DNA of 64,000 bases from a virus. The notes beneath the pieces are model-generated. The model saw only the letters and a program-made list of their open reading frames with translations. It was not told where the DNA came from and searched no databases. The position numbers and the translations under genes are program-made. Below, one piece after another: positions 9,639-59,118 of the stretch (its first letter is position 1; every line of letters begins with the position of its first letter). The stretch lies in UHGV virus genome UHGV-0084588; one strand, 5' to 3'.

Positions 9639-9653
9639 GGGGCTTCGTGCCCC
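9639..9653 (+). terminator. short GC hairpin after 7986-9638 (weak terminator or RNA-stabilising stem)
   Basis: GGGGC-ttcgt-GCCCC, with only a weak T tract after it. Confidence 0.3.
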
Positions 9654-9682
9654 CTAATCTATAGACACCACAGGACAGTATC

Positions 9683-9931
9683 ATGGCAGCCTATGTTGAT
9701 TATAGTAAAACAAAAATTGAGTTAAAGGAGATTGATACCGCCGCTCGTTTAAAACAACAACTTAATCTGGAGTTATACCAACTCCAAGTTCGGATGCACG
9801 AACGCGAACAGCTCATTGAAAAACGCCCAATTTTCATTGACGAGCGCCAAGTGAAACTGATCACTGCGGAACTGGAGGTAATGGCCGCAGAGAAATTGTT
9901 GTTAGAAGAACGCATTGCCGCTATTGTTTAA
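9683..9931 (+). CDS. small coiled-coil protein (82 aa)
   Basis: ORF flanked by hairpins at 9639-9653 and 9943-9975; heptad-like L/E/K-rich sequence. Confidence 0.45.
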   Translation: MAAYVDYSKTKIELKEIDTAARLKQQLNLELYQLQVRMHEREQLIEKRPIFIDERQVKLITAELEVMAAEKLLLEERIAAIV

Positions 9932-9942
9932 TCGCCCCCACA

Positions 9943-9975
9943 GGAGAGCTTCGGCTCTCCTCCTTTATTTTTATT
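9943..9975 (+). terminator. rho-independent terminator
   Basis: GGAGAGC-ttcg-GCTCTCC followed by tcctttatttttatt. Confidence 0.65.
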
Positions 9976-10019
9976 CCCCAATTTATTATAGCCGCCCACT
10001 ATAGTGAGGGAATGAGGAA

Positions 10020-10319
10020 ATGATTAAATATGTTGTTATTAATGTAAACTACGAACGTAGCCCACGTTTTCGCTTCGAATTACCTGAAACCGAAGCAACC
10101 ATGGAGTTTAATCGCTATTTATTAGAACATTCAAACACCAAAATTAATCACGGTAGATACTGGCTTATCTACTATAATGCCCGTAATGAATTACTGAAAG
10201 CCGTCAAGAAATCAGGTCAGTCGGAGCTGTTAGCGAAACTGATGGCGTACGATAACGATCCCTTAGCAATAGGAGTTATGTTAGACCTTGTTATTAAGAA
10301 AGATGAAATAGCGTGGTGA
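10020..10319 (+). CDS. hypothetical protein (99 aa)
   Basis: ORF with SD gaggaa upstream; ends at a bidirectional terminator. Confidence 0.5.
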   Translation: MIKYVVINVNYERSPRFRFELPETEATMEFNRYLLEHSNTKINHGRYWLIYYNARNELLKAVKKSGQSELLAKLMAYDNDPLAIGVMLDLVIKKDEIAW

Positions 10320-10332
10320 AAAAAGAAAAGCT

Positions 10333-10357
10333 ACTCCGACCCCAGAAGGGTCGGAGT
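10333..10357. terminator. bidirectional terminator between convergent genes
   Basis: ACTCCGACCC-caga-aGGGTCGGAGT flanked by an A-run upstream and ttatttttttttt downstream; lies between 10020-10319 (+) and 10384-13101 (-). Confidence 0.65.
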
Positions 10358-10383
10358 AAGCTCGAATTATTTTTTTTTGCTAT

Positions 10384-25304: not shown

Positions 25305-25350
25305 CTCAGATATATATTACTTAAGTGAGAGTTACAATTAACTCTTTACA
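25305..25350 (+). promoter_or_regulatory. conserved promoter-like element with downstream inverted repeat
   Basis: CTCAGATATATATTACttaaGTGAGAGTT...AACTCT, 45-75 nt upstream of the HTH gene. Confidence 0.45.
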
Positions 25351-36008: not shown

Positions 36009-36212
36009 GCTTGACGCTTTTACTGGTAATGGAGGCCAAAGTAAACTTTTATCAAGACTTAGTAAACCCAGATCATGAGAACGCGGAATTGGACATCACT
36101 TTCACGTTAGAAGTTGATGGATTAAAACCAGTATAATAATCCGCTTATAAAAATGTTGGGGAGGTGCTTTACCTCCCCAGATCTTTTAGCTCCAGATAGA
36201 GAATTAAATATC

Positions 36213-39200
36213 ATGGCTAAAGCGGTAAAGAAAATACGTTTACACGATTTGCGTCCATACACCGGGGATATCGGTGAAGGCGTTTTACTTTTTTCGAAAG
36301 ACGAAAAAGATTATAAGTTACCCGTCCGCGAAATCGTTGCGGATATTGACACCGTCAGAAACGCGGTTGCTGATGCACAAACAGCTGCAGCCAAATCGCA
36401 GCAGTCTGCAACAGAAGCTACGCAAGCAAAAAATTTAGCGGAAACCGCGAAGCAACAAACTGACACGTTAGCTTCCACAGTCAGTGAGCAAGCGGGAACC
36501 GTTGCCACTAAAACTGCTGAAGTTAACAAAAAACACGCTGAAGTTTTAGCAGCGAAAACTGCCGTAGATACTGTTTCACAATCAGTAAATGAGAAGGCTC
36601 AAGCTGTCGCCACATCCGAACAATCTGTGACGGCTACGGCGGCTGATGTAACTAAGAAAGCAGAAACGGTTACGCAACAGGCCGGACAAGTTCAACAGAC
36701 GGCTACCAGCGTTGAAAATACCGCAGCTTCAGTCGAGGCCAGTAAAGGTGCAGTGGAGAAAATCGCTGCACAGGTCGCGAAAGATAAAGAAAGCTCAGAA
36801 GGGGCAGCTACGCGTTCGGAGTCAGCTGCCCTACGTGCGGAGAAAATCGCTGCCCAAGGATTAGTTGACGCTACTACAACCGGTAAAGGTATTGTTAAAC
36901 TTAACGATACCCTGACAAGCGATTCCGTGACTGAGGCTGCTACACCGTCCACGGTTAAACAGCTGAACGACGATTTACAGTTAAAAGCCAATAAACATTC
37001 GCCGAATTTTACGGGTAACCCGACATCCCCAAAACCGCCGAAGGACTCGAATGACACGAGTATCTCCACAACGTCCTGGGTGCGTGACGCGATTGCGGAA
37101 TTGGTTGGTTCTTCACCCGAGACGCTAAATACCTTAGCGGAATTAGCTGAGGCGTTAGGTAATGACCCTAACTTCGCAACAACGATCACTGAGGAACTTG
37201 CGCAGAAACAACCTCTCAGCCCGTTACTCACCGCTATTGCCGCAGTCACCACAGCGGCAAACAAACTCATGTATTTCACCGGCAGTAATAAAGTCGGATT
37301 AACAGATTTTACAGAAACGGCCAGATCCTTGTTAGCGAAAGGGTCAACTGCGGATATCATTAACTTCCTGGGTTTGAAACCCACCGTTGATAAAGCAAAC
37401 GGCGCATTACAGAAAAACTCTAACGGTGCTGATATCCCAAATAAAGAAACTTTTGCTCGCAACATCGGCCTATCTCCTGATACCTATCTGCGTTTCCGTG
37501 GCGAAATGCCTGTAGATGCTGATATTAACACATTTGCTCCAGATGCTAATTACACAGGAACATGGTCCAAGTCGACATCAACCAATGCGTCGATGGCAAA
37601 ACACTTCCCAGAAGACGGTGCAGTCGGTTATCTGGAAGTGTATAAAGCGGGCAACTACAGTGGAGCGCAACGTTTTACCTGCCGTAATGGTAACGTGTAC
37701 AACCGTATGTTGTCAGGTGCGTGGAACGGAACTAATGGCCCGTGGTCACCGTGGAGAATGGTAACTACCGGTGTACGTCCGTTATCTACATCGATCGATC
37801 TGAACTCCTTAGGCGGCGCTGAGCACATGGGTAACTGGCGTAACTCGTCCAGTTCGTTAGCGGTGTTCGACAGACATTATCCTGAAGAGGGCGGTAATGC
37901 GCAAGGCGTATTAGAAGTCATGGAAGGCGGTCTTTATGGACGGTTGCAACGATACACCACACGACATGGTACGATGTATGTCCGTGGTTTGACTGCGACT
38001 TGGGATTCTTCTAATCCGCAGTGGGAAGATTGGATTCAGGTTGGGTATCAGGTAGACGGTGCCTACTATAAGGGTAGCTTTAACGACTTAACTAAACCGG
38101 GCCGCTTTAGTGTTACCGGTGAGGCTACAGACAGTCCGTTAACAGACTCTGCTGGCGCAACCTTGCTAGGTGTTTGCGAAGTTACCTTACGCTTAGACGG
38201 TTCAGGCGTTGAACAAAATTATACCACATACGGTACAGGCGCAACTTCGAAAGGTCGCAAGTTCCAACGAATTCGTACAGGAAACGCCTGGAGCGAATGG
38301 CGAGAGATTTTCACATCCTATTCACTCCCGTTGACTTTAGGGATCGGTGGGGTTGCTGCTAAGGTCGATCCGTTAGACTGGCAAACATTCGACTTCGTTC
38401 CTGGCCAGATGATAAGTACACCGTTGAATACCATGAAAAATATTCCTGCGGGAATGGATTGGGGTGTTATCGACGGTAACTTGGTCACTATTCTTGTAGG
38501 GGCGTCGGAGGACACCGGTACTGGCCGGAGTATGTTGGTCTGGCGTGGTACAGTGTCTACTGCTAACTATCGCTTCTTTGCTGTTCGCGTCGCTGGTGAA
38601 AAGGGTAAACGTACTATTACTAGCCGCCAGATGCCCGTATTGAATGCAGCGCATACGTGGGCAGAAAAACAGACCTTTGCAAAAGGGTTATCGGGCGAAT
38701 TGACAGGTAATGCGTCAACGGCAACAAAACTGAAAACAGCCCGTTTAATCGGCGGTGTAAGTTTCGACGGTAGCGGCGACATTAGCCTCCCTGGTGTGAA
38801 CCAACAGGGTAATCAAAACACCTCTGGGAACGCGGGAACCGCAACCAAATTACAAACGGCTCGAAACATCAACGGTGTGAAATTTGATGGGTCTAGAGAC
38901 ATCAATATCAACACGTTGGTAGGACGTGGACGTGTTACTGCACTGTCTGGTTCAAACAAAGGTACACCCGGTATTCAGATGTACGAAGTTTACAATAACG
39001 GTTATCCAACCGCTTATGGTAACTTACTGCATTTGGGTGGCGCTACTGCGCTAGGTGAAGGCGAGCTGTTAATCGGATGGCCGGGGACGAGCGGTGCGCA
39101 CGCGCCTGTTTATATTCGTAGTCGACGTGATACGGCTGATGCACCGTGGTCAGATTGGGCACAAGTTTACACTGCCCGTGACAGCATTCCTGGCGTAAAT

Positions 39201-40655
39201 GCCACCGGTAATCAAGATACTACCGGCAACGCCGCTACCGCGACGAAACTGAAAACCGCTCGCAGGATCGGAGGCGTTACCTTTGACGGTACAGGTGATA
39301 TCAATTTACCGGGCGTTAACCAGCAAGGCAACCAGAATACGACAGGTAATGCAGCGACCGCTACTAAGTTACAAACCGCACGTAAGATCGGCGGTGTGCT
39401 TTTCGATGGGACAAAAGACGTTAATCTTCCTGGCGTAAACCAAACCGGTAACCAATCGACTACGGGGAATGCGGCGACAGCGACTAAGCTCCAGACTGCG
39501 CGAAATATAGGTGGTGTAGCTTTTGATGGTACTAAAGACATCAGTTTACCTGGAGTAAACCAAACAGGTAATCAGGCGACTACCGGAAACGCAGCCACGG
39601 CAACAAAGTTGCAAACCGCAAGAACCATTAACGGTATCGCATTTGACGGCACTAGAAATATATCGTTAGGACCTGCCGATATAGGTTGTCCGGCATCGCC
39701 TAGTGGTTGGTTAGAAACTGGCAAAGATGGCGGCGCAATAACTACAGCACAGCTAGTGACGTTATTGAAAAATAACGGCGCATTTACCACAAGATCGTGG
39801 GTTGCTCGCTGTGCATGGGCTTATGCCGCTAGTGCGTCCATACCACACAGCGAGACGGGTTGTGGTGTTATTCCGTTAGCTGGGGCCGTTATAGAAGTGA
39901 TTAGTAACGGTAATAGCACAAACAACTACACGATCCGTATAACGACTGCCACAACGGCGAGCGTCGGTGGCGCACTCACTAATGCGGAGTTTATCTACGT
40001 ATTTAACGGCGATACATACTCACCAGGCTGGCGTCGTGCTTACAATACGAGAAACAAGCCAACTGCTGCAGAAGTGGGTGCACTACCTTCGGGGGGCGGT
40101 ACTATAGGCGGCGATTTAACCGTTAACGGTAAATTGGCCACTAAATACCCTGATTTTCGAATCGCTTACGGTACCTACGGTTTTATTTTACGTAACGACG
40201 GTGCCAATACCTATTTCTTAGTAACCGACGCCGGACAAGCCGCAACGGGTTCCTGGAACGGATTACGCCCGTTGTCTTTTAATAATTCTAACGGCCAAGT
40301 AAACTTTGGACATAACGTTACTGGCAACGGTAACGGTTCGTTTAACGACGTACAGATTCGTTCTGACCGTCGTAACAAACGTAATCTGGTGAAGCTGGAT
40401 AAAGCTTTGGATCGGTTAGAGTTACTAACCGGTTATTTGTACGAAATTCAGCATCCGGATGACGGCTGGCAGACTTCTGTAGGTCTAATTGCTCAGGACG
40501 CATTAGAAGCGTTACCTGAACTTGTGTCTGAGGATGATGATGCCATTTCAGGCGAAAAACGTTTACGTCTAAACTACAATGGCGTTATTGCGCTGTTAGT
40601 AGAGGGTATGAAAGCGTTGCGTCAAGAGGTTAACGAAATTAAAGGAAGATCCTAA
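36213..40655 (+). CDS. tail fibre protein with Ala-rich coiled coil, 40-aa tandem repeats and C-terminal intramolecular chaperone (S74-like) domain
   Basis: 1480-aa ORF; repeats GNAATATKLQTAR.IGGV.FDGT.DI.LPGVNQ.GNQ.TT; C-terminal SDRRNKRN...GLIAQD...YNGVIALLVEGMKALRQE resembles the self-cleaving chaperone domain of tail fibres and tailspikes. Start moved from 36153 to 36213 by paralogy with 42678. Confidence 0.85.
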   Translation: MAKAVKKIRLHDLRPYTGDIGEGVLLFSKDEKDYKLPVREIVADIDTVRNAVADAQTAAAKSQQSATEATQAKNLAETAKQQTDTLASTVSEQAGTVATKTAEVNKKHAEVLAAKTAVDTVSQSVNEKAQAVATSEQSVTATAADVTKKAETVTQQAGQVQQTATSVENTAASVEASKGAVEKIAAQVAKDKESSEGAATRSESAALRAEKIAAQGLVDATTTGKGIVKLNDTLTSDSVTEAATPSTVKQLNDDLQLKANKHSPNFTGNPTSPKPPKDSNDTSISTTSWVRDAIAELVGSSPETLNTLAELAEALGNDPNFATTITEELAQKQPLSPLLTAIAAVTTAANKLMYFTGSNKVGLTDFTETARSLLAKGSTADIINFLGLKPTVDKANGALQKNSNGADIPNKETFARNIGLSPDTYLRFRGEMPVDADINTFAPDANYTGTWSKSTSTNASMAKHFPEDGAVGYLEVYKAGNYSGAQRFTCRNGNVYNRMLSGAWNGTNGPWSPWRMVTTGVRPLSTSIDLNSLGGAEHMGNWRNSSSSLAVFDRHYPEEGGNAQGVLEVMEGGLYGRLQRYTTRHGTMYVRGLTATWDSSNPQWEDWIQVGYQVDGAYYKGSFNDLTKPGRFSVTGEATDSPLTDSAGATLLGVCEVTLRLDGSGVEQNYTTYGTGATSKGRKFQRIRTGNAWSEWREIFTSYSLPLTLGIGGVAAKVDPLDWQTFDFVPGQMISTPLNTMKNIPAGMDWGVIDGNLVTILVGASEDTGTGRSMLVWRGTVSTANYRFFAVRVAGEKGKRTITSRQMPVLNAAHTWAEKQTFAKGLSGELTGNASTATKLKTARLIGGVSFDGSGDISLPGVNQQGNQNTSGNAGTATKLQTARNINGVKFDGSRDININTLVGRGRVTALSGSNKGTPGIQMYEVYNNGYPTAYGNLLHLGGATALGEGELLIGWPGTSGAHAPVYIRSRRDTADAPWSDWAQVYTARDSIPGVNATGNQDTTGNAATATKLKTARRIGGVTFDGTGDINLPGVNQQGNQNTTGNAATATKLQTARKIGGVLFDGTKDVNLPGVNQTGNQSTTGNAATATKLQTARNIGGVAFDGTKDISLPGVNQTGNQATTGNAATATKLQTARTINGIAFDGTRNISLGPADIGCPASPSGWLETGKDGGAITTAQLVTLLKNNGAFTTRSWVARCAWAYAASASIPHSETGCGVIPLAGAVIEVISNGNSTNNYTIRITTATTASVGGALTNAEFIYVFNGDTYSPGWRRAYNTRNKPTAAEVGALPSGGGTIGGDLTVNGKLATKYPDFRIAYGTYGFILRNDGANTYFLVTDAGQAATGSWNGLRPLSFNNSNGQVNFGHNVTGNGNGSFNDVQIRSDRRNKRNLVKLDKALDRLELLTGYLYEIQHPDDGWQTSVGLIAQDALEALPELVSEDDDAISGEKRLRLNYNGVIALLVEGMKALRQEVNEIKGRS
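38706..38912 (+). repeat. two tandem copies of a 120-bp (40-aa) fibre repeat inside the tail fibre gene
   Basis: Encodes GNASTATKLKTARLIGGVSFDGSGDISLPGVNQQGNQNTS followed by a diverged copy. Confidence 0.7.
39225..39680 (+). repeat. four tandem copies of the 120-bp (40-aa) fibre repeat inside the tail fibre gene
   Basis: Copies begin at 39225, 39345, 39465 and 39585; each encodes GNAATATKLQTAR.IGGV.FDGT.DI.LPGVNQ.GNQ.TT with synonymous codon drift. Confidence 0.8.
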
Positions 40656-43352: not shown

Positions 43353-43398
43353 CTCAGATATATATTACCTAGGGGAGAGTGAAATTTACATTCACTCC
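43353..43398 (+). promoter_or_regulatory. conserved promoter-like element with downstream inverted repeat
   Basis: CTCAGATATATATTACCTAGGgGAGAGTGAAatttacaTTCACTCC upstream of 43426. Confidence 0.45.
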
Positions 43399-47260: not shown

Positions 47261-47307
47261 TTCAGATATATATTACCTAGGTGAGAGTTCAGTTACTCTC
47301 ACTTAAC
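47261..47307 (+). promoter_or_regulatory. conserved promoter-like element with perfect palindrome
   Basis: TTCAGATATATATTACCTAGGTGAGAGTtcagttACTCTCACTTAACG upstream of 47332. Confidence 0.45.
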
Positions 47308-50505: not shown

Positions 50506-51354
50506 ATGTCTCTTACGTCAAAACAGAAACTGCTAAAACTCATCAACACTGAAAACAATATTGTTCCGCCATTGACCTTCAGTGATGTTGATATCGGCGA
50601 ACCTACTGGTACTGGGGTTGATACCCAGGTGGTTCTGACTTCTAAACTCAAAGGCGATGAGTCTACTACTTTAACGGTGACTTACCATCGTCGTAATTTG
50701 CCAGAATACCTAACAGGCGAGTTGGTATTCGGTAACGACGGTGTTGTAACTGCTGCAGATTTGCTTAATGCAATCAACGCAAAATACGATTTAAATATTC
50801 TGCCGTCAGATATCGTTGATGCGAAAGTTGAAGGTAAAACCCACCAACTTGCCGCTAACGAGAAATCCTACGAGTGGTGTGGCGAAGTGACACTTACGCT
50901 ACGCGATCCTATTGATCTGGCTAAACTGCTACCTGTTACTCAATTAGAAAACCTGGTAGAGTATCCGTCCACCAAGAAAGGTAACGCTGCGGTTTATTCT
51001 TATCCGATTGACTTCACCGCAGAAAAAGATTACCTTGATCCGATTACCATTAACGACACCGTAGACTTAGTAGAGTTAGCTACTAAACTGACTAACGTTG
51101 TTGACGAGAAATGGGTAAGCGTACCTAAGAACGCTGCTAATAACTTGTTCGGTGCTAAGGTTATCTACGATGGCCCTACCGCAGGTTTCGAAGGCGCAAA
51201 TGCGAAGTACACGCGTGTGCTGGTACTCGCCCTAAGCGGTATGTGTTCTAACCTGACCGGTAAACTGTTAATTCACTTTAACGGAACCGATCGTCCGAAG
51301 TCGAAGATTGAATTAGCCAAGACTAATTCGGTCTTACCGGGATTCTTAGATTAA
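50506..51354 (+). CDS. member of a six-copy paralogous protein family, possibly structural (282 aa)
   Basis: N-terminal pattern L..LIN..N......T..DV..GEP.....G..T.V.LT.........(Y/H).R shared with 51368, 54511, 55107, 35448 and 42163. Confidence 0.55.
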   Translation: MSLTSKQKLLKLINTENNIVPPLTFSDVDIGEPTGTGVDTQVVLTSKLKGDESTTLTVTYHRRNLPEYLTGELVFGNDGVVTAADLLNAINAKYDLNILPSDIVDAKVEGKTHQLAANEKSYEWCGEVTLTLRDPIDLAKLLPVTQLENLVEYPSTKKGNAAVYSYPIDFTAEKDYLDPITINDTVDLVELATKLTNVVDEKWVSVPKNAANNLFGAKVIYDGPTAGFEGANAKYTRVLVLALSGMCSNLTGKLLIHFNGTDRPKSKIELAKTNSVLPGFLD

Positions 51355-51367
51355 GAGGATTACAGTA

Positions 51368-51844
51368 ATGACCAGTCAAGAAACTATCTTCGACCTTATT
51401 AAAAAGGCTAACCCAGACGCCGAGCTCGACACCGCCAAAGTCACATTGGGTGAGCCCGTCGTAAGTACCGGTACGTACAACACCGAAATTACGGTTGCGC
51501 CGGTGAAGAATCTCGGTTATGTTAATAAGCAAACGTTCCAGTATAACCGCATTGATGCAGGTTTGTATTTCCTCAACGTATTGCCGAAACTGTTAGTTGA
51601 AACAGCCACCACGACTGCGGACTTGCTGCCTGTAATTAACGAGCAGTATGGCTTAACCCTTACCGAAGACGATGTGTGGGTAGAGCAGGTTGGTGCGTTA
51701 CCGCTAGACGGCAGTGCAATCGAGCACGGTATTTTCTTCCGCCCAGAGTGTCTAACCTGGGTCGGTGGTTTTACAGTGCGTGTTGCGCGTAAACCGTCTG
51801 TCGAGACACCGCCAGCTAAGCCATCGCGCGCTAAGAAGAAATAA
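51368..51844 (+). CDS. member of the same paralogous family (158 aa)
   Basis: Family pattern as above; terminator downstream. Confidence 0.55.
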   Translation: MTSQETIFDLIKKANPDAELDTAKVTLGEPVVSTGTYNTEITVAPVKNLGYVNKQTFQYNRIDAGLYFLNVLPKLLVETATTTADLLPVINEQYGLTLTEDDVWVEQVGALPLDGSAIEHGIFFRPECLTWVGGFTVRVARKPSVETPPAKPSRAKKK

Positions 51845-51906: not shown

Positions 51907-52497
51907 ATGGCCGAACGTTGGACTAAAGAAGGTATTATTGAATCAAAAACAGATTTAGAGGGTGGGTACGTGAACGACCCTGACGATAAAGGTGGGGAAA
52001 CCTGTCACGGGGTAACACTGACAACTGCACGCGAATACGGGTACAAAGGAAGAATGAAAGATCTGACCCGTGCGCAAGCGTTTGATATTTACGATCGTGG
52101 TTGGTGGAAGAAACTTAAACTCGATGAGATTTTCGCTATCTCGCCGATACTCGCAGACCGGATGTTTGATTTTGGTATTAACTCTGGCCGTGTTAACTGT
52201 GTGAAATCATTACAACGTATTCTCAACGTTTTAAATAACGAAGGGAAACTTTACGCAGATATTGACACCGACGGTGGCATGGGCCCTAAAACGCTAGGTG
52301 CCCTGAATGCTTATCTGAATTACCGTAAAGGCGAGGGATTAGGCATCTTAATCTTTGCGTTAATCTCACACCAGGTAACCTACTACACGGAAATCTCCGA
52401 AAAGCGTAAGAAGAATGAAAAATTCGCTTACGGCTGGTACGGACGCGTGTACAGGGAAATGCCGGATTATGTAGTGAAGGCGGGGTTAGTAAAATGA
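51907..52497 (+). CDS. endolysin, glycoside hydrolase family 108 muramidase with peptidoglycan-binding C-terminal domain
   Basis: N-terminal EGGYVNDPDDKGGETCHGVT is the hallmark GH108 motif; the C-terminal half resembles the associated PG-binding domain. Confidence 0.8.
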   Translation: MAERWTKEGIIESKTDLEGGYVNDPDDKGGETCHGVTLTTAREYGYKGRMKDLTRAQAFDIYDRGWWKKLKLDEIFAISPILADRMFDFGINSGRVNCVKSLQRILNVLNNEGKLYADIDTDGGMGPKTLGALNAYLNYRKGEGLGILIFALISHQVTYYTEISEKRKKNEKFAYGWYGRVYREMPDYVVKAGLVK

Positions 52498-52613
52498 ATT
52501 GGTTTGCTAAACTCTTAGCACTATTGTGGAAAGCGTTAACGTCTGGACGGAAACGTAAAGACGAAAAGCGTGGGTACGAATTTTTCTGGTTTCTATAAGG
52601 GAAGGTGTGGGTA

Positions 52614-53279
52614 ATGGAGAAGCTTCAATATAAACGTTTAGACAATAAGTGGTTTGTATTAACGGAGGATTACCATTATCCGTTTACGTTACGCGAGATT
52701 TATCACGACCACGTACACTTAGACCGTGCGGTTTATTTAACGGGTGTATTGCCTGACACGCAACTGTGGTTAACAGCACCGAAAGGGTTCGTTACCGATT
52801 TAGCGTCAATTCCTGATCACCTCCAGGGAATTTTCCATCCTGACGGACCGTGGGCACCTGCGGCCTGTATTCACGACTTACTCTATCAAAAATGCAACAC
52901 AGAGCGTAGCTATCCCATGACACCGGGTGGTAACGTTTCGCGTTTTATCGATAAAGAGTTCTCTGACTTAACTTTCCTGCGTATTATGCAGTCGTTGGAA
53001 ATCTCGCCTTATATCTGCCAAACATTTTATAAGGCTGTTGTTGAATTCGGCTGGGATGCCTACGTAGATCCTAATGCAAAGCCATCCTACAACACTAACG
53101 CGTTTCGTACGTTAGATTACAATCGAAACTATTTATTCGTTCGCGAGTTTAAGGAACCTGCAATCCCTGACCACGAACGTATTGATATCACCACAGATTG
53201 TCCCGTTAATGTCAAATACCTGAACATCAAACGGGCATTTCTGTCTGGGAGGGAAGATGTTTCATCCAAATCCGAGTAA
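52614..53279 (+). CDS. DUF1353-like phage protein
   Basis: GFVTDLASIP...HD.LY resembles the DUF1353 signature as I recall it; ATG at 52614 preferred over the track start 52605. Confidence 0.4.
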   Translation: MEKLQYKRLDNKWFVLTEDYHYPFTLREIYHDHVHLDRAVYLTGVLPDTQLWLTAPKGFVTDLASIPDHLQGIFHPDGPWAPAACIHDLLYQKCNTERSYPMTPGGNVSRFIDKEFSDLTFLRIMQSLEISPYICQTFYKAVVEFGWDAYVDPNAKPSYNTNAFRTLDYNRNYLFVREFKEPAIPDHERIDITTDCPVNVKYLNIKRAFLSGREDVSSKSE

Positions 53280-53772
53280 CTTTAAACTCAGAGAGTTAGT
53301 ACCACAGTCCTATATTGCCAAATACGGTGATTCCGCAATTCGGTTTATGAATCCGTTGTTAATGATTTCCCTACAACAGATTCGTAACCGTTTCGGTAGA
53401 ATGGTGATTAACTCAACTGCCGCACAACAGCGCGGACTAAGAACCTTAGATTTCTTTATTAATCAAGAAAAGCCTAAGGGTGGTAGTTATAAACAACGTG
53501 CGTTGCAGCTTTACGCCGATTCAGGAAGTCAACACAAATTCGGTAACGCTATTGATGCAACGTTGTTGGATAGCACCGTAAAACAGGTTCACGACTATAT
53601 CGCTGCTAACCCTGACGAGTTTCCGTTCATTCACTTTATTGAATGTGATATCAGTTGGTTACACATCGACGTTCGTAACCAACCTAACATTACTTTCTGG
53701 TCACCAAACCGTGGCACTGTGAAGGTTGTTAAGCAAAAGCCAATCGATTGGAGCGCCTTAGTCGAGATTTAA
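53257..53772 (+). CDS. peptidase M15-like cell-wall hydrolase
   Basis: SQHKFGNAIDA fits the S.H..G.A.D zinc-binding motif and WLHID fits the second His motif of M15/VanY-type peptidases. Confidence 0.55.
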   Translation: MFHPNPSNFKLRELVPQSYIAKYGDSAIRFMNPLLMISLQQIRNRFGRMVINSTAAQQRGLRTLDFFINQEKPKGGSYKQRALQLYADSGSQHKFGNAIDATLLDSTVKQVHDYIAANPDEFPFIHFIECDISWLHIDVRNQPNITFWSPNRGTVKVVKQKPIDWSALVEI

Positions 53773-53855: not shown

Positions 53856-53892
53856 TACCCTACTCCCGTTAAGGAGTAGGGTACTTTTTATT
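53856..53892. terminator. bidirectional terminator between convergent genes
   Basis: TACCCTACTCC-cgttaa-GGAGTAGGGTA with a flanking A-run and ctttttattg; lies between 53257-53772 (+) and 53888-54379 (-). Confidence 0.65.
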
Positions 53893-54379
53893 GTTCCGCA
53901 GGATGGAGCATTGTTCCAGTGTCAGGCGCTACACCTTCTATACAGCGGAAGAAAGTAATGCCTTTACCATCGCCCGTTTTATATTCTAAAGTAGAATACG
54001 CAAATGTTGGTGTTTTTGAAAGCAAACCATTTACACGGTAGTAACGTTGTCCCGTGATAGGATCAATATTCCCATTAACTTTACCTAATAAATCTTTATA
54101 AAGTTGGGGCGACTCAATCTTACCATTTGGCCAAGTGGCTACCCAATTAGCACCAGTATCGACTACGGTTACTGAGCCTAACATTAGATTAGTCGAGCTG
54201 ACGACAGGTTTGTAATTTGCAAAATCTTGCTCTACACCCATGCAGGTGTAAATAACCATGTCGTGTGGCTCCACCGGCACAGTCGAGAATTGGCCGTTAC
54301 CATTTGGTTGTAAGGCACATCCTGCTAATGAAAAAACACCAAGCATAACGATAAGAAAACGCTTTATCATACTTTTCAC
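53888..54379 (-). CDS. lipoprotein (163 aa)
   Basis: Signal peptide with lipobox LAGC (MKSMIKRFLIVMLGVFSLAGCALQ); lone minus-strand gene between plus-strand genes; bidirectional terminator downstream. Confidence 0.65.
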   Translation of the reverse strand: MKSMIKRFLIVMLGVFSLAGCALQPNGNGQFSTVPVEPHDMVIYTCMGVEQDFANYKPVVSSTNLMLGSVTVVDTGANWVATWPNGKIESPQLYKDLLGKVNGNIDPITGQRYYRVNGLLSKTPTFAYSTLEYKTGDGKGITFFRCIEGVAPDTGTMLHPAEQ

Positions 54380-54434
54380 CTTTTTTATAAAAAGTTAAAA
54401 AAAATATTTTTACAGACAACCCTTACTGCCGACT

Positions 54435-54463
54435 GTCATAACAATTAACACCACTTCTATAAT
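54435..54463 (+). promoter_or_regulatory. sigma70-like promoter candidate
   Basis: Perfect -10 TATAAT (54458-54463) with a weak -35 gtcata at 17-bp spacing, about 45 nt upstream of 54511. Confidence 0.3.
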
Positions 54464-54510
54464 CCGAACAATACTATGCAATCCACCCTGCCAACCACGA
54501 GGTAAATACG

Positions 54511-55041
54511 ATGGCTAAAACCTTCCAACAGCAACTTATTGACGCTGTTAATACCAAAAACAGTACCCTGGACCCCGCACTCACCGTAGCTGATGTTGAC
54601 TTTGGTGCTGTTGCTGAGTTCACCGGAGAAGCTGGCCGCAACACTAAAATTACCCTGACCGCCAAGGAAGAAAGCCAGCACTTCAAGGGCGAGAAAGAAT
54701 TCCACTATACTCGTCTTTCATGCGACATCGTTGGTGAAGTTGAAGTAACTGCACCTGCTACCGATTTCGATTCAGCAGCGAAAATCCTGGCGAAAGTTAA
54801 CGCAGCCATGGCTGAGAAAGGGTACACCGATGACGAGTTCGGTGAAAACGACCTGCAAAGTATTTCTCGTGAAGAAGAAGGCAAAACCATTTACGTAGTA
54901 ACTGTTGTGGCCGGACACCTGAAGTTCCTGCCAGGCACTGTTGCAACGTATAAAGTTACTCCTCCGGCTCCTGAGAAAGTAGCACTGGACGGTCTGGAAG
55001 GTGAACTGGATAGCTTCACTGCACCGCTTCCTAAAGAGTAA
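54511..55041 (+). CDS. member of the six-copy paralogous family, codon-biased (176 aa)
   Basis: Family pattern; host-like codon bias suggests high expression; a sigma70-like -10 element lies upstream. Confidence 0.6.
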   Translation: MAKTFQQQLIDAVNTKNSTLDPALTVADVDFGAVAEFTGEAGRNTKITLTAKEESQHFKGEKEFHYTRLSCDIVGEVEVTAPATDFDSAAKILAKVNAAMAEKGYTDDEFGENDLQSISREEEGKTIYVVTVVAGHLKFLPGTVATYKVTPPAPEKVALDGLEGELDSFTAPLPKE

Positions 55042-55106
55042 TTGAACCGGGGGGGGGGTAACCTCCCCCGATATTTCTTTAACCCGCATTTTAAGGATTT
55101 AAGATA

Positions 55107-55637
55107 ATGGCCGCTACTAACCAGATGATGTTGGTCGCGCTTTATAATGCTGCTAACACTGAGCTACCACATCAGATTACTGATAAAGAAGTGTCCTTTG
55201 GTCTCCCTACTGCGCTGGAAGGCAAAAGTAAGAATACCAAAGTTACCATGACTGCACTACCGGGTTCTGAGAATTTCAAAGGCGCAATCGAGCTGCATTA
55301 CGATCGTCTGGAGCCGGGTGTTGTAGGACGTATTGAACTAACTGACGATTTGTCTCGTTGGGAAGATCAAAACGAATTGCGCGCATGGTTACAATATTAC
55401 ATCAACAAAGTAAAACCTGACGACGCTATCGCACCTGGTGACGTTGTGTACAGCACCGAAGACCAGAAAGACGAACATGATAACGTCACACTGCGTACGG
55501 TAACGTGCACCGTTACTGAAAAGAACCTCCGTTATAAACCGGGTGTAATGGCAACTTTCGTAATTACGCCGAAAGTTGTTGACAATCGTATTGACCTGGC
55601 CACTACCAACGGCGAGCTGGACGGCTTTACGTCCTAA
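55107..55637 (+). CDS. member of the six-copy paralogous family (176 aa)
   Basis: Family pattern; bidirectional terminator downstream. Confidence 0.6.
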   Translation: MAATNQMMLVALYNAANTELPHQITDKEVSFGLPTALEGKSKNTKVTMTALPGSENFKGAIELHYDRLEPGVVGRIELTDDLSRWEDQNELRAWLQYYINKVKPDDAIAPGDVVYSTEDQKDEHDNVTLRTVTCTVTEKNLRYKPGVMATFVITPKVVDNRIDLATTNGELDGFTS

Positions 55638-55700: not shown

Positions 55701-56372
55701 TTACAGCCCTTGCTCTAACGCAAACGCTTTTATCGAATCGTAATCACGCGCCTCAGCCCAAGCCCTGACTTCTTTTTTCTGCTCAGACATTGCGTGGTGT
55801 AGTCTTTGATCACGCGCAACGATTGCTGCCATCAGCGCTTTGCACTGCTCTAACGAAAAAGGTTCGATGCGGGTGTTAGCCGTGTCCAACCAATAACTCG
55901 GTGCTGTTTCAGACTGGATATACTGGCCCAACATTTGACGAGACGTTTCGTCCGCTTGGAAGTAGCGACCATCGACTTCAATATATCCGTGGCGCTGATC
56001 TTCATAACGGTGTTCCATCTCCAACATGATTTTCTGGATATCGAGATAGATGTAACGCGCCGTCGAACGCATATTCGTTCGAATCTCTTCCAGGTTAATC
56101 TCCAGAACGTCAGTAATGAATTCTTTTGCTTTGTTCAGTGTAAACTTCGACTCGATAGGAGACATTTCGTAAGTTTTCATCTGGGCTAAAGCTTCTTCAT
56201 CACTCATCCCTTCAATCAACTTGTAGTGCAGTAATGCACAGAACCCCGTACGTCCACGGTCTTCGTTACCTACACGTTCCATGTAGTTACCATGGCGGTC
56301 AATTGGTAGATCGTGCGCGAAATAACGTGCGCGAATCTCTTCTTTCGTTAAGCTTTTGTTAGAAGCAGACAT
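55701..56372 (-). CDS. hypothetical protein, last gene of the radical SAM operon (223 aa)
   Basis: ORF overlapping the upstream gene; HD..H-like motif near the N-terminus is too weak to call. Confidence 0.5.
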   Translation of the reverse strand: MSASNKSLTKEEIRARYFAHDLPIDRHGNYMERVGNEDRGRTGFCALLHYKLIEGMSDEEALAQMKTYEMSPIESKFTLNKAKEFITDVLEINLEEIRTNMRSTARYIYLDIQKIMLEMEHRYEDQRHGYIEVDGRYFQADETSRQMLGQYIQSETAPSYWLDTANTRIEPFSLEQCKALMAAIVARDQRLHHAMSEQKKEVRAWAEARDYDSIKAFALEQGL

Positions 56373-56938
56373 TCTTCTTCTCCAACCATACCTAATTCTT
56401 GCAGCAAGCCAAAATCAATCAACTGGAAGGTTTCAGAGAGATCGTTTGACCACACCACGTTTGCAATGTCGCGTTCTTCATCGGATAATTGCGGTAACAC
56501 ATTTTCGTTGAACGTCTGATGCTCTACGTAATAAGCATCGTAGATAGACGTAGAACGCAAGCAACGGATTGGCAGTCTTGGGAAAGACACCGCTAATGCA
56601 GCAATAGATGCGCTGCTCGGATTCTCCGCAGAATAGCGAAGCAATTCGATTTTGTGGCGCGGATAGTCCAGTACGCGTTGCTCGAAACCCGGATTACGTT
56701 TTTCGATTTCAACAACGGACTCATGACCTGTTTCTGTACAGTAAACGGGAATCATCACGTTTAGCCCGTACTTAATTAACAGAGGTTTAATCTCATCTGT
56801 AAAGTCTTCGCCAGGGATAATGGCGTGAACGTTATAGAGTTTATGTTTGCGCAGAAAACGCTCAACCAGATGGAGTTTACGCTTCGTAAAATTGTGGATC
56901 AGAATTGATTTCATTATTTGCCTCAGTAGGTTGTGCAT
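56348..56938 (-). CDS. hypothetical protein in the radical SAM operon (188-196 aa)
   Basis: ORF overlapping the rSAM gene stop; an alternative ATG at 56914 has SD gagg. Confidence 0.5.
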   Translation of the reverse strand: MHNLLRQIMKSILIHNFTKRKLHLVERFLRKHKLYNVHAIIPGEDFTDEIKPLLIKYGLNVMIPVYCTETGHESVVEIEKRNPGFEQRVLDYPRHKIELLRYSAENPSSASIAALAVSFPRLPIRCLRSTSIYDAYYVEHQTFNENVLPQLSDEERDIANVVWSNDLSETFQLIDFGLLQELGMVGEEECLLLTKA

Positions 56939-58211
56939 TTAAAGCACGTTTAGCTTGCTCACGCTCACGCGTACATTTCGGACAGTAACAAACAGACGAA
57001 TCGTGCAGTGACGATGCGTGGACGGTACCCGTACGTTGACGCCAGTATTCTGCTGCCATCAGTTTTGCGGTCGTCCAGCCACATTGACGACGTTCAGCGT
57101 GGTACGCCTTACGGTCTTCCAGTGTCCCTTCACCGTTTTCGTAGGAAGCAGCTGCACAGCTGCCACAACCGTGTTTCATCGGACAGCCTAAGCACGTTTC
57201 AGGGTAGTTAGTATATTGCGTCTGAATCTCTTCCAGCAGCTTCCCGTCATCTAAACTAACGAACTCGCGACCAACTAATTCAAACACCGCAGAACGTGAC
57301 GTTACCGTTGACATAAAACGGTTACAACCGTATACCTTGCGGTCAAAACCTAAACAGGTCATGAACGTTAACGTACCACAGAACGGACGTAGGCGATCTG
57401 GGTTATAACGATGCGTGTCGTCATACAGCAGCTTATCGCGCCAATCTGGGTCCCAAATCTGACGGAAATCCAGACCTTCGGGAATGATATGTGACAACAC
57501 GTTACGTGGATTGGTGTGCAACCCTTTCTCAATCCAATAATCCATCACGTCGATCATCTGCAACGCAATATCCGTTGCCATGCTCCGTGGAAGAATATCT
57601 TCGTACGTAACGTTACCTGAAATCGTACCGCCACCGGCAACATCGATTAGCGATTTCATACTCGCTGCATAATGCGGTAACGTTTCGGTCGTAAAGGTTG
57701 CCTTGATACCCAGTTCAGCAATACCGACTTCTTTTAAGTAGTTATAGCCACGAACAGCGGCTTCGTAAGAACCTTGACGCGTCGTGGTAAAGATACGATA
57801 GCGGTCATGGACTTCTGGTAAACCGTCGATAGAAACACCGATGGAGAGTTTGTCTTTCCAACGCTCAACAATCTCACGGTTTAACGGGCGATCTAACAAC
57901 GTACCGTTAGTTGAGATACTGAACATATACGGGCGATTGTGCTCCTTACACAACTGTTCTGCGGTTTCGAACGCCGCTAACAGCAGTTTCGGTTGCATAA
58001 AAGGCTCACCGCCGATGATATCAATAATGACGTCGATGTTCGGAATATCTTTATCGCGCTCAAAACACGCGTGTAAGAAATCCACGATATCCGCCGCTTT
58101 GTTATTACGCGGATACTTACGTTCGTAACAATACTCACAGTCTAAGTTACAAGACAGATTCGTTACCACCTGGTAAGTACGTTGAGAACGTGGTGCTTCA
58201 TTATTGCTCAT
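56877..58211 (-). CDS. radical SAM enzyme with C-terminal SPASM-like Cys-rich domain (444 aa), candidate peptide maturase
   Basis: Canonical CNLDCEYC (CxxxCxxC) near the N-terminus; C-terminal clusters FCGTLTFMTCLG...GCNRF and CLGCPMKHGCGSCAAA fit the auxiliary Fe-S pattern of SPASM/twitch domains. Confidence 0.75.
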   Translation of the reverse strand: MSNNEAPRSQRTYQVVTNLSCNLDCEYCYERKYPRNNKAADIVDFLHACFERDKDIPNIDVIIDIIGGEPFMQPKLLLAAFETAEQLCKEHNRPYMFSISTNGTLLDRPLNREIVERWKDKLSIGVSIDGLPEVHDRYRIFTTTRQGSYEAAVRGYNYLKEVGIAELGIKATFTTETLPHYAASMKSLIDVAGGGTISGNVTYEDILPRSMATDIALQMIDVMDYWIEKGLHTNPRNVLSHIIPEGLDFRQIWDPDWRDKLLYDDTHRYNPDRLRPFCGTLTFMTCLGFDRKVYGCNRFMSTVTSRSAVFELVGREFVSLDDGKLLEEIQTQYTNYPETCLGCPMKHGCGSCAAASYENGEGTLEDRKAYHAERRQCGWTTAKLMAAEYWRQRTGTVHASSLHDSSVCYCPKCTREREQAKRALNAQPTEANNEINSDPQFYEA

Positions 58212-59118
58212 CTTTGCTTATCCTTTTACGCTCTGCATAAATCACGCGTTTAATGTACTCGTAAGCACCTACTCCAATAGAGCAAGCGAGCTGATTGCAG
58301 CCACCGTTTAAGATAGCTGGGGCATTCTGAAGCTGATGTTCTGTTCCATCTGCGTTCAAATACAACTCTTCGCTACAAACATTACACTCGTTTTCGAAAA
58401 TCTTGCTGACAGACACGCCGCACGATTCTCCAGTTTGGACGTTCAACCGTTCCATATTCTCCTGAATTTTTAAATAGCCATAAACGAAGTTCATGACGTG
58501 ATCAGGAGACAATGGTTTTGGCATCTGCGCATCAAACATTAGAGAAAACGCACGGGGACGATAGTGGTACATCGCACGATGCAAATCCACAATATCTTCA
58601 TACCAGCGCTTATCCGCTAACTGGTCACGCGTAATCACAGCCCAGGTTTGGAAATTATCGAGTTCGTATAACGCTTCCAATGCTTCGTGGCTATCCTCTT
58701 CAATAAAGCGCATAAAAGGGCGCTCAGAACGCTTGTAGCCATCAATTGATACAAACACATGCTCAAAGTCTTTTAGCAGCGTAAGATGCGATTTACGCAG
58801 TTTTAAGCCGTTGGTATACAAGTGATGCTCAAGGTGCGGATGAGACACTTTCAATTCGTTAACGAAATCCTCAATCTTACGTTGGACGAGTAGCGGCTCG
58901 CCACCGGTCCAATGTATTTCCTTAATAGCCGGATTCTCTTGTAGTAATTCCAGGATACGTTCGCGTTGAAAAGCACGAGACGAATCTTCACGATTCATGT
59001 AGTAGGCTCCACCGCAGAAACTACAATCTAGGTTACACTTAGACGTCGTAACTACGGACAATATAGTGGGTTTATCGTACAACTTCGTCGAGATCCTGGA
59101 TTCCACATTGTCTATCAT
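58201..59118 (-). CDS. radical SAM enzyme (305 aa)
   Basis: CNLDCSFCGG (CxxxCxxC) motif; GGEPLL glycine-rich SAM motif; C-terminal CNVCSE...GGCNQLACS Cys cluster; overlaps the downstream rSAM gene by 11 nt. Confidence 0.7.
   Translation of the reverse strand: MIDNVESRISTKLYDKPTILSVVTTSKCNLDCSFCGGAYYMNREDSSRAFQRERILELLQENPAIKEIHWTGGEPLLVQRKIEDFVNELKVSHPHLEHHLYTNGLKLRKSHLTLLKDFEHVFVSIDGYKRSERPFMRFIEEDSHEALEALYELDNFQTWAVITRDQLADKRWYEDIVDLHRAMYHYRPRAFSLMFDAQMPKPLSPDHVMNFVYGYLKIQENMERLNVQTGESCGVSVSKIFENECNVCSEELYLNADGTEHQLQNAPAILNGGCNQLACSIGVGAYEYIKRVIYAERKRISKDEQ

Follow-up and report, generated by a model that had tools for sequence, protein, structure and literature searches.

A 64,000-nucleotide stretch of the virus genome UHGV-0084588 (the window hereafter, meaning the whole stretch that was analysed) carries a minus-strand gene for a predicted outer-membrane lipoprotein, a member of a conserved family of jumbo-phage proteins. 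The most constant neighbours of this family are DUF7941 adhesin-like and tail-fibre genes, not lysis genes. By analogy with lipoproteins of other phages, the product most plausibly modifies the envelope of the cell and thereby bars the attachment or entry of further phages, a suggestion that draws on the gene context, namely the DUF7941 and tail-fibre neighbours found across divergent lineages. We favour, tentatively and with less than even confidence, the reading that it is an exclusion or adsorption-blocking outer-membrane lipoprotein of a new structural type. The features that define the gene are as follows:

53888..54370, minus strand: lipoprotein coding sequence, orthologue of SPN3US_0159 and member of phrog_9559.
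54317..54370, minus strand: signal peptide and lipobox, read from the sequence; the Cys is invariant in 17 homologues.
54377..54382, minus strand: Shine-Dalgarno sequence AAGGTG, 6 nt 5′ of the ATG.

A preliminary description of this DNA had placed the open reading frame (ORF) at 53888-54379 on the minus strand, which is the ORF finder's entry with its mechanical GTG start. The frame is present, but its true start is almost certainly the ATG at 54370. The GTG falls within the Shine-Dalgarno sequence, from which a spacer of 6 nt leads to the ATG; an independent gene caller, run on the source scaffold, picked the same ATG, and all homologues begin there. Translation from this codon gives a 160-residue prolipoprotein that begins MIKRFLIVMLGVFSLAGC. 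Its N terminus has two basic residues, then a hydrophobic core of 11 residues, then the lipobox: n-region K3/R4, h-region FLIVMLGVFS, lipobox L15-A16-G17-C18 and Ala at +2. The signal peptide and lipobox read MIKRFLIVMLGVFSLAG up to the predicted lipid-attachment residue, Cys18. These are the marks of a lipoprotein signal, that is, a positively charged n-region, a hydrophobic h-region, a lipobox of the form [LVI][ASTVI][GAS]C and no Asp at +2, and with the LAGC motif, Cys18 and the +2 Ala kept in 17 homologues, the original observation that the protein bears a lipobox is borne out. In Enterobacterales, Ala at +2 leads to outer-membrane sorting, and the sequence predicts this destination here. 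Scanning all reading frames of the 64-kb window revealed no second credible lipobox ORF. The mature protein comprises 143 residues (15.6 kDa, isoelectric point 5.2) and contains no hydrophobic segment, the maximal 19-residue Kyte-Doolittle mean being 1.05; its C terminus is polar and disordered, with no membrane segment.

The protein matches the phrog_9559 profile with E = 6.3e-66 (residues 2-150 on positions 2-152 of 166), and its homologue in phage Goslar does so with E = 3e-21; the family carries no assigned function. By tblastn, homologues at 47-60% identity occur in 55 phage genomes, all SPN3US-, Asesino-, Wellington- or ChrisDB-like or Goslar jumbo phages of Salmonella, Escherichia, Erwinia and Proteus. 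A hidden Markov model scan of 1.84 billion representative proteins recovered no more than 13 clusters of the family; every informative context was a jumbo-phage contig, and no chromosomal bacterial context was seen among the contexts examined. Two of the clusters (P0002 and P0003, both close homologues) bear NCBI names from isolate assemblies of Salmonella enterica serovar Agona and Proteus mirabilis, which suggests that jumbo-phage DNA was sequenced together with the bacterial isolates. Two others (P0015 and P0020) are permuted segments of the SPN3US homologue and were excluded from alignments; together with the piecewise matches in several SPFM Salmonella phage genomes, they look like assembly artefacts.

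The resulting family alignment holds 17 sequences, down to 28% identity, in which nine positions are invariant: the lipid Cys, C43, C143, G73, R109, Y111, S126, G133 and G135. The lipobox and the +2 Ala are conserved throughout, and none of the 17 has Asp at +2. Against a 98%-identical relative, the gene shows a ratio of nonsynonymous to synonymous substitution rates (dN/dS) of 0.05. Given this value and the homologues in 55 genomes, the gene is real and under strong purifying selection. Pfam, NCBIfam and PADLOC scans of the lipoprotein and 17 relatives gave nothing meaningful, even at E ≤ 5-10. Database entries for the family are labelled ‘hypothetical protein’ or ‘Lipoprotein’, and we found in the literature no studies on SPN3US gp159, Goslar gp088 or jumbo-phage lipoproteins.

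AlphaFold, supplied with the 17-sequence alignment, predicts an all-beta barrel with a mean confidence (pLDDT) of 85 and a core above 90, the model consisting of a signal helix, a short tether and about ten beta strands. This run superseded an earlier one on nine sequences, which had reached a pLDDT of 63 and left fold searches uninformative. C43 lies in the first long strand of the model and C143 in the last; from these positions, and because two invariant cysteines are expected of a periplasmic disulfide, we infer that a C43-C143 bond staples the closure of the barrel. The barrel model has no significant match to any known family. A sequence-profile match in the PDB to pyrroline-5-carboxylate reductase (E 0.01) was rejected as chance, the fold being incompatible.

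We then placed the gene in its genomic setting. No match was obtained when the region was compared with 50,697 phage genomes by megablast, so the phage is new at the DNA level and its relatives were found by protein searches alone. At the protein level, the window is syntenic with the interval from about 68 to 147 kb of SPN3US, a jumbo phage of Salmonella (30-84% identity), and an identical lipoprotein is encoded on a 220.8-kb human-associated metagenome scaffold. The SPN3US orthologue (RefSeq ACQ60_gp107) has the same orientation and the same neighbourhood, which in the window comprises:

51907..52497, plus strand: endolysin with Glyco_hydro_108 and PG_binding_3 domain matches.
52605..53279, plus strand: DUF1353 protein, by domain and PHROG match (phrog_1158, annotated ‘tail assembly chaperone’).
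53257..53772, plus strand: 171-residue M15-like peptidoglycan peptidase (phrog_894; faint Peptidase_M15_3 match), the convergent neighbour.
54511-55041 and 55107-55637, plus strand: two short DUF7941 paralogues (domain match), divergent from the lipoprotein gene.

The window and SPN3US share the order GH108 endolysin, DUF1353, M15-like peptidase, lipoprotein (on the opposite strand), one or two DUF7941 genes and a minus-strand block, which opens with a DUF4376 gene and includes radical-SAM genes; a 34-residue ORF after the endolysin is present in the window and not in SPN3US, and Asesino has no peptidase gene. Identity to SPN3US is 49% for the lipoprotein, 58-78% for the surrounding enzymes and 36-45% for the DUF7941 paralogues, indicating that the lipoprotein evolves faster than the enzymes, at a rate near that of the paralogues.

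More distant relatives define which neighbours are constant. In L027 (28% identity), the lipoprotein gene follows a DUF7941 array and is convergent with M15 and DUF1353 genes. In Goslar (about 30% identity), the homologue gp088 comes directly after a P1 S-like tail fibre (gp090) and its assembly protein Tfa (gp089), on the same strand, and is followed by the gene of a protein in which DUF7941 is joined to a tail-sheath/receptor-binding TIM barrel. In L037, the genes on either side encode DUF7941 proteins that carry fused LRR_5 and DUF285 repeats. DUF7941 in Goslar-like contigs is an N-terminal module with variable, adhesin-like C termini (LRR_5, DUF285, TIM barrel), and none of Goslar, L027 and L037 has an endolysin near the family member. 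The contexts of P0013 and P0011, which were too short, and of L035, whose neighbours are without annotation, were left out of this comparison.

The window's own DUF7941 genes are four short paralogues (50506-51844 and 54511-55637), and SPN3US has 17 members over about 20 kb (115-135 kb). Between the two paralogues beside the lipoprotein gene, a poly-G/poly-C hairpin with a T-rich tail (CGGGGGGGGGGTAACCTCCCCCG, 55048-55070, plus strand) looks like a terminator inside the tandem pair. The window also encodes, at 36153-40655 on the plus strand, a 1,500-residue long tail fibre that is T4 gp37/P1 S-like and falls in the same PHROG families as Goslar gp090. SPN3US matches just the first 46 residues of this fibre, and several ORFs from about 30.9 to 49.8 kb likewise have no SPN3US counterpart, so this region looks like a replaced host-range region.

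Its strand sets the gene apart. Between 13101 and 55637 it is the one credible gene that does not lie on the plus strand; the four longer antisense ORFs in that interval overlap plus-strand genes with homologues and are themselves without a PHROG match. The elements that would delimit its transcription are:

53856..53884, both strands: hairpin, predicted two-way terminator (−21.2/−22.0 kcal/mol).
54435..54440, minus strand: conserved hexamer TATGAC, putative late-type promoter (like that of the phiKZ non-virion RNA polymerase, G = +1).
54475..54478, plus strand: TATG, conserved in the alignment, putative late-type promoter of the divergent DUF7941 gene.

The preliminary description had called this the only minus-strand gene in 40 kb, insulated by a bidirectional terminator. 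The first statement holds over about 42 kb, with the caveat that an 8-kb minus-strand block begins at 55701, 1.3 kb beyond the gene, which therefore sits at a strand-switch border and not deep within the plus-strand block. As to the second, the hairpin lies between the stops of the convergent M15-like peptidase and lipoprotein genes, has a GC-rich stem of 11-13 bp and folds strongly on either strand (z −6.0 and −6.6), but the U-tract that follows it is good for the plus transcript and poorer for the minus transcript; it is predicted to act as a two-way intrinsic terminator.

Upstream, TATGAC lies 70 nt 5′ of the lipoprotein ATG, and the exact hexamer is shared by the window and all 13 related loci, at a distance of 38-71 nt 5′ of the start codon. 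Apart from this hexamer, the 140-nt divergent spacer 5′ of the gene shows no alignment between lineages. TATGAC would be expected by chance about 0.05 times per sequence, and at least six independent lineages carry it. On the opposite strand, TATG[C/A] stands 5′ of the divergent DUF7941 gene, its reverse complement GCATA/TCATA being conserved in the alignment. Late promoters of the phiKZ non-virion RNA polymerase are defined by TATG, with the G as start site (PMC4666361; PMC7598289). By analogy, the lipoprotein gene would form a late or middle-to-late unit with its predicted start at the G of TATGAC, position 54437, and the Goslar homologue, co-oriented behind tail-fibre genes, agrees with such timing. 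A sigma-70 scan returned fewer matches than shuffled sequence and none for the lipoprotein gene. The AT-rich motif CAGATATATATTAC is likewise absent 5′ of the gene. This 14-mer occurs in three exact plus-strand copies at 25307-25320, 43355-43368 and 47263-47276, all intergenic and each 5′ of a plus-strand ORF, with a hairpin and T-run just 5′ of the copies at 25307 and 43355; the copies are probably a second, AT-rich and early-type class of phage-polymerase promoter.

Building on the established gene, its lipoprotein features, its fold class, its family distribution and its neighbourhood, we propose a mechanism for exclusion. The phage's non-virion RNA polymerase would transcribe the lipoprotein gene from the TATG-type promoter as a one-gene unit ending at the hairpin. 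In the product, an outer-membrane anchor and short tether would keep the barrel, about 125 residues of all-beta structure stapled by a disulfide, in the periplasm; from that side the barrel may bind an envelope component that is conserved in Enterobacterales. The infected cell, and the debris left after lysis, would then no longer take up or adsorb phages of the same kind. The effects, exclusion of superinfecting phages and protection of progeny, would be those of T5 Llp, T1/phi80 Cor and Rtp45, brought about here by an unrelated and larger protein. We infer the promoter class (by analogy with phiKZ), the localization and the whole functional step, target and exclusion alike. The genes of Llp, Cor and Rtp45 neighbour those for receptor binding, and the proteins work at the outer membrane from its periplasmic side, where they bind the receptor; exclusion lipoproteins are also thought to keep progeny off post-lysis fragments (PMC9586334, PMC12685063). 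A role against debris fits the predicted late expression of the lipoprotein gene, which comes from a strictly lytic phage. Adjacency to tail-fibre genes is present in Goslar; in L027, L037 and the window, the adjoining genes are those of DUF7941 adhesin-like proteins, whose binding role is unproven.

Several observations weigh against an exclusion role. At 15.6 kDa, the mature lipoprotein is twice the size of Llp, Cor and Rtp45 (about 6-7 kDa; about 6 kDa for Rtp45, PMC12685063), and it has neither sequence similarity nor detected structural similarity to any of the three. Its upstream element is late-type, whereas T5 Llp and T4 Spackle are early products (PMC9586334, PMC7677548). SPN3US is reported to be flagellotropic (PMC11428620), and a periplasm-facing lipoprotein cannot mask flagella directly. 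The window's long tail-fibre gene lies 13 kb away from the lipoprotein gene, and proteomics assigned the SPN3US DUF7941 paralogues to the head, not the tail (PMC5105663), so that the label ‘host-recognition module’ for these neighbours derives from domain fusions. That the family is conserved in phages of several host genera suggests a target which is itself conserved, not a receptor that varies. Finally, our literature search found no experiments on any family member.

An alternative that we regard as unlikely, although it survives best, is an envelope take-over factor unrelated to exclusion. Such a protein would bind a host machine, such as regulators of peptidoglycan synthesis or hydrolysis, Tol-Pal, Lpt/Bam or the flagellar LP ring, and in this way would either preserve the integrity of the infected cell, which becomes greatly enlarged, or suppress motility in the course of the long jumbo-phage cycle. 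On the surface of the barrel, the motifs GANWVA, ESPQLYKDLLGK, RYYR and GxGxGxTFFxC are conserved across Salmonella, Escherichia, Erwinia and Proteus phages, which argues for a target conserved in Enterobacterales and not for a strain-specific receptor. Host cells enlarge markedly in jumbo-phage infection (PMC13282480), and the flagellotropism reported for SPN3US (PMC11428620) also speaks for this reading. The case is purely inferential and has no known partner, however, and it leaves the steady linkage to adhesin-like and tail-fibre genes unexplained.

A periplasmic inhibitor of peptidoglycan hydrolases is more doubtful still. Here the protein, resembling MliC/PliC, would block a phage muralytic enzyme in the periplasm, either a lysozyme or peptidase in the tails of incoming particles or the endolysins that the phage itself encodes, with exclusion or protection from lysis-from-without as effected by T4 Spackle, or control of lysis timing, as the outcome. 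Like MliC, the protein is a lipoprotein in which one Cys is close to the first strand of the barrel and another within the last strand, and there is a loose likeness of motifs (TGxRYY...KGxTFF..C against SGA[RK]Y...KGxxATVY..C). The gene is convergent with the M15-like peptidase gene in the window, SPN3US and distant L027, and the peptidase orthologue, SPN3US gp158, is a low-copy non-head virion protein (PMC5105663). Spackle itself sets the precedent that a periplasmic tail-lysozyme inhibitor can cause exclusion (PMC7677548).

We recovered true MliC/PliC sequences, aligned them and compared them with the family in several modes of hhalign. The alignment covered the signal peptide and first strand only, at a non-significant 35% probability; an unrelated lipoprotein used as control gave the same signal-peptide-type match, and with signal peptides removed P was 0.14. 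There is no Pfam MliC match even at E ≤ 10, and the SxSGAxY and YxxxTKG motifs are not reproduced. MliC/PliC homology was therefore set aside, and the loose resemblance is a lead rather than membership. In addition, MliC/PliC act on C-type lysozymes, of which these phages encode none. Nor do the lipoprotein and peptidase genes co-occur across genomes: most Erwinia phages with the lipoprotein have no peptidase, and CR5/Derbicus have the peptidase and no lipoprotein match. On these grounds, the M15-like peptidase was rejected as an obligatory partner.

It is very improbable that the protein is a lysis component, be it the spanin subunit of the outer membrane or some other late factor that breaks this membrane, or times its break, together with the endolysin and the 34-residue peptide. 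The outer-membrane lipoprotein signal and the late-type promoter would suit such a role, a GH108 endolysin lies within 1.4 kb in SPN3US- and Asesino-like lineages, and phage lipoprotein genes are rare and a usual pointer to outer-membrane spanin subunits (o-spanins; PMC6139136). However, the genes of o-spanins are embedded in, overlap or immediately follow that of the inner-membrane partner, the i-spanin (PMC12894885 for phiKZ gp141/141.1; PMC6139136), and here the lipoprotein gene is alone on its strand with no adjacent gene for a type-II inner-membrane protein: neither the M15-like peptidase nor the DUF7941 products flanking it have a transmembrane domain, and the genes of both are on the other strand. 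An N-terminal lipobox without a C-terminal transmembrane segment is also at odds with a u-spanin of the T1 gp11 type, and the compact disulfide-stapled barrel of the model is at odds with a short extended chain. The family is not near an endolysin in Goslar, L027 or L037.

A pair at 180017-180976 in SPN3US fits the spanin layout. A scan of the whole SPN3US genome found just two annotated lipobox genes, the orthologue of the lipoprotein gene and 180497-180976 (LLTGC), which encodes a 159-residue lipoprotein. The latter begins 10 nt after a gene (NC_027402.1, 180017-180487; L032/L034) whose 156-residue product runs from an N-terminal membrane segment through a helical stretch to a Pro-rich tail. 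Homologues of the second lipoprotein occur in 73 phage records that include the major lineages of the family studied here, Goslar not among them. In sequence and order, the two genes fit a candidate spanin pair in the canonical separated layout, unannotated as such. Given this separate, conserved pair, the spanin role appears to be filled elsewhere, judged on SPN3US; the corresponding region of the window phage lies outside the window. The preliminary description had offered an o-spanin as one possible role and placed the gene next to the lysis genes. The first falls with the missing i-spanin partner, the missing C-terminal membrane segment and the separate spanin-like pair; the second is loosely true, the endolysin being 1.4 kb off with the DUF1353 and M15-like genes between. 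Its other suggestion, a superinfection-exclusion factor comparable to T5 Llp, stays the most plausible of the proposed functions. For annotation, the lipoprotein gene should not be labelled a spanin, since spanin candidates in SPN3US-like phages are located elsewhere.

A chance ORF or unexpressed annotation artefact, to which a lone reverse-strand ORF might point, is refuted by conservation in the 55 phage genomes and further metagenomic contigs, by the dN/dS of 0.05 and by the gene's own Shine-Dalgarno sequence, conserved upstream element and terminator, and its likelihood is negligible. The probability that remains after the exclusion reading and its rivals belongs to functions that we have not thought of.

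Three further features of the window were noted. The 34-residue ORF (52494-52598, plus strand; MNWFAKLLALLWKALTSGRKRKDEKRGYEFFWFL) overlaps the endolysin stop in an ATGA, was called on the source scaffold too, has no SPN3US match by tblastn and resembles Asesino gp172 (MKTNWFVTLMRAVGRALLFALRRKRHEKPEGGKA); with an amphipathic helix followed by a polybasic tail, its sequence could specify a membrane-active lysis peptide. The 745 nt between convergent genes at 9639-10383 contain no ORF of at least 110 residues. Two adjoining radical-SAM genes at 56877-59118 on the minus strand, 72-83% identical to those of SPN3US, have a conserved 295-residue gene upstream on that strand and two conserved small genes downstream.

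We know of no account of how nucleus-forming jumbo phages handle superinfection or the loss of progeny on debris. A 2026 review of jumbo phages leaves exclusion, lipoproteins and spanins all unmentioned (PMC13282480). It is possible, though on balance unlikely, that the family represents the first system for superinfection exclusion or progeny protection in nucleus-forming jumbo phages (Chimalliviridae of Enterobacterales). On the periplasmic side of the outer membrane, a 15-kDa disulfide-stapled barrel lipoprotein would in that case disable a conserved envelope component required for entry, such as a secondary receptor or, for SPN3US, a flagellar basal structure, or would block incoming wall-digesting enzymes in the manner of MliC. 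The family is compact, easily cloned and present in the genetic models SPN3US and Goslar, which makes the question directly testable. Should the protein prove to bind an envelope machine that is conserved, it would provide a new periplasmic probe or inhibitor of that machine.

Comparison with known systems defines where the family would stand. With the o-spanins lambda Rz1 and phiKZ gp141.1 it shares an outer-membrane lipoprotein signal, a predicted late gene and, in some lineages, a nearby endolysin; unlike them, it has no adjacent i-spanin gene, lies on the strand opposite the lysis genes and is modelled as a folded barrel. MliC, PliC and PhiA (PF09864) differ in the size of the barrel, which in our model is about 50 residues larger and has extra strands, the MliC/PliC fold being an eight-stranded antiparallel beta-barrel, and in acting where a C-type lysozyme is part of the system. 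T4 Spackle, which acts in the periplasm and halts superinfecting particles at the cell-wall step (PMC7677548), would be a likeness of hypothesis only: Spackle is soluble and early, is no lipoprotein and inhibits the gp5 tail lysozyme, and we found no similarity between the two proteins. Llp, Cor and Rtp45 belong to siphophages, whereas the protein studied here is a predicted all-beta barrel of nucleus-forming jumbo myophages with an apparently late promoter. All are nevertheless phage lipoproteins aimed, in our case by prediction, at the inner leaflet of the outer membrane and with an internal disulfide (Cys11-Cys58 in Llp, predicted here). The genes of all three stand beside receptor-binding or tail-fibre genes, a position matched by the family in Goslar, and the proposed role is the same, namely to prevent phages from adsorbing again to infected cells and to debris (PMC9586334, PMC12685063). 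If it is an exclusion factor, the lipoprotein would be a new structural variant of this known kind and the first for nucleus-forming jumbo phages.

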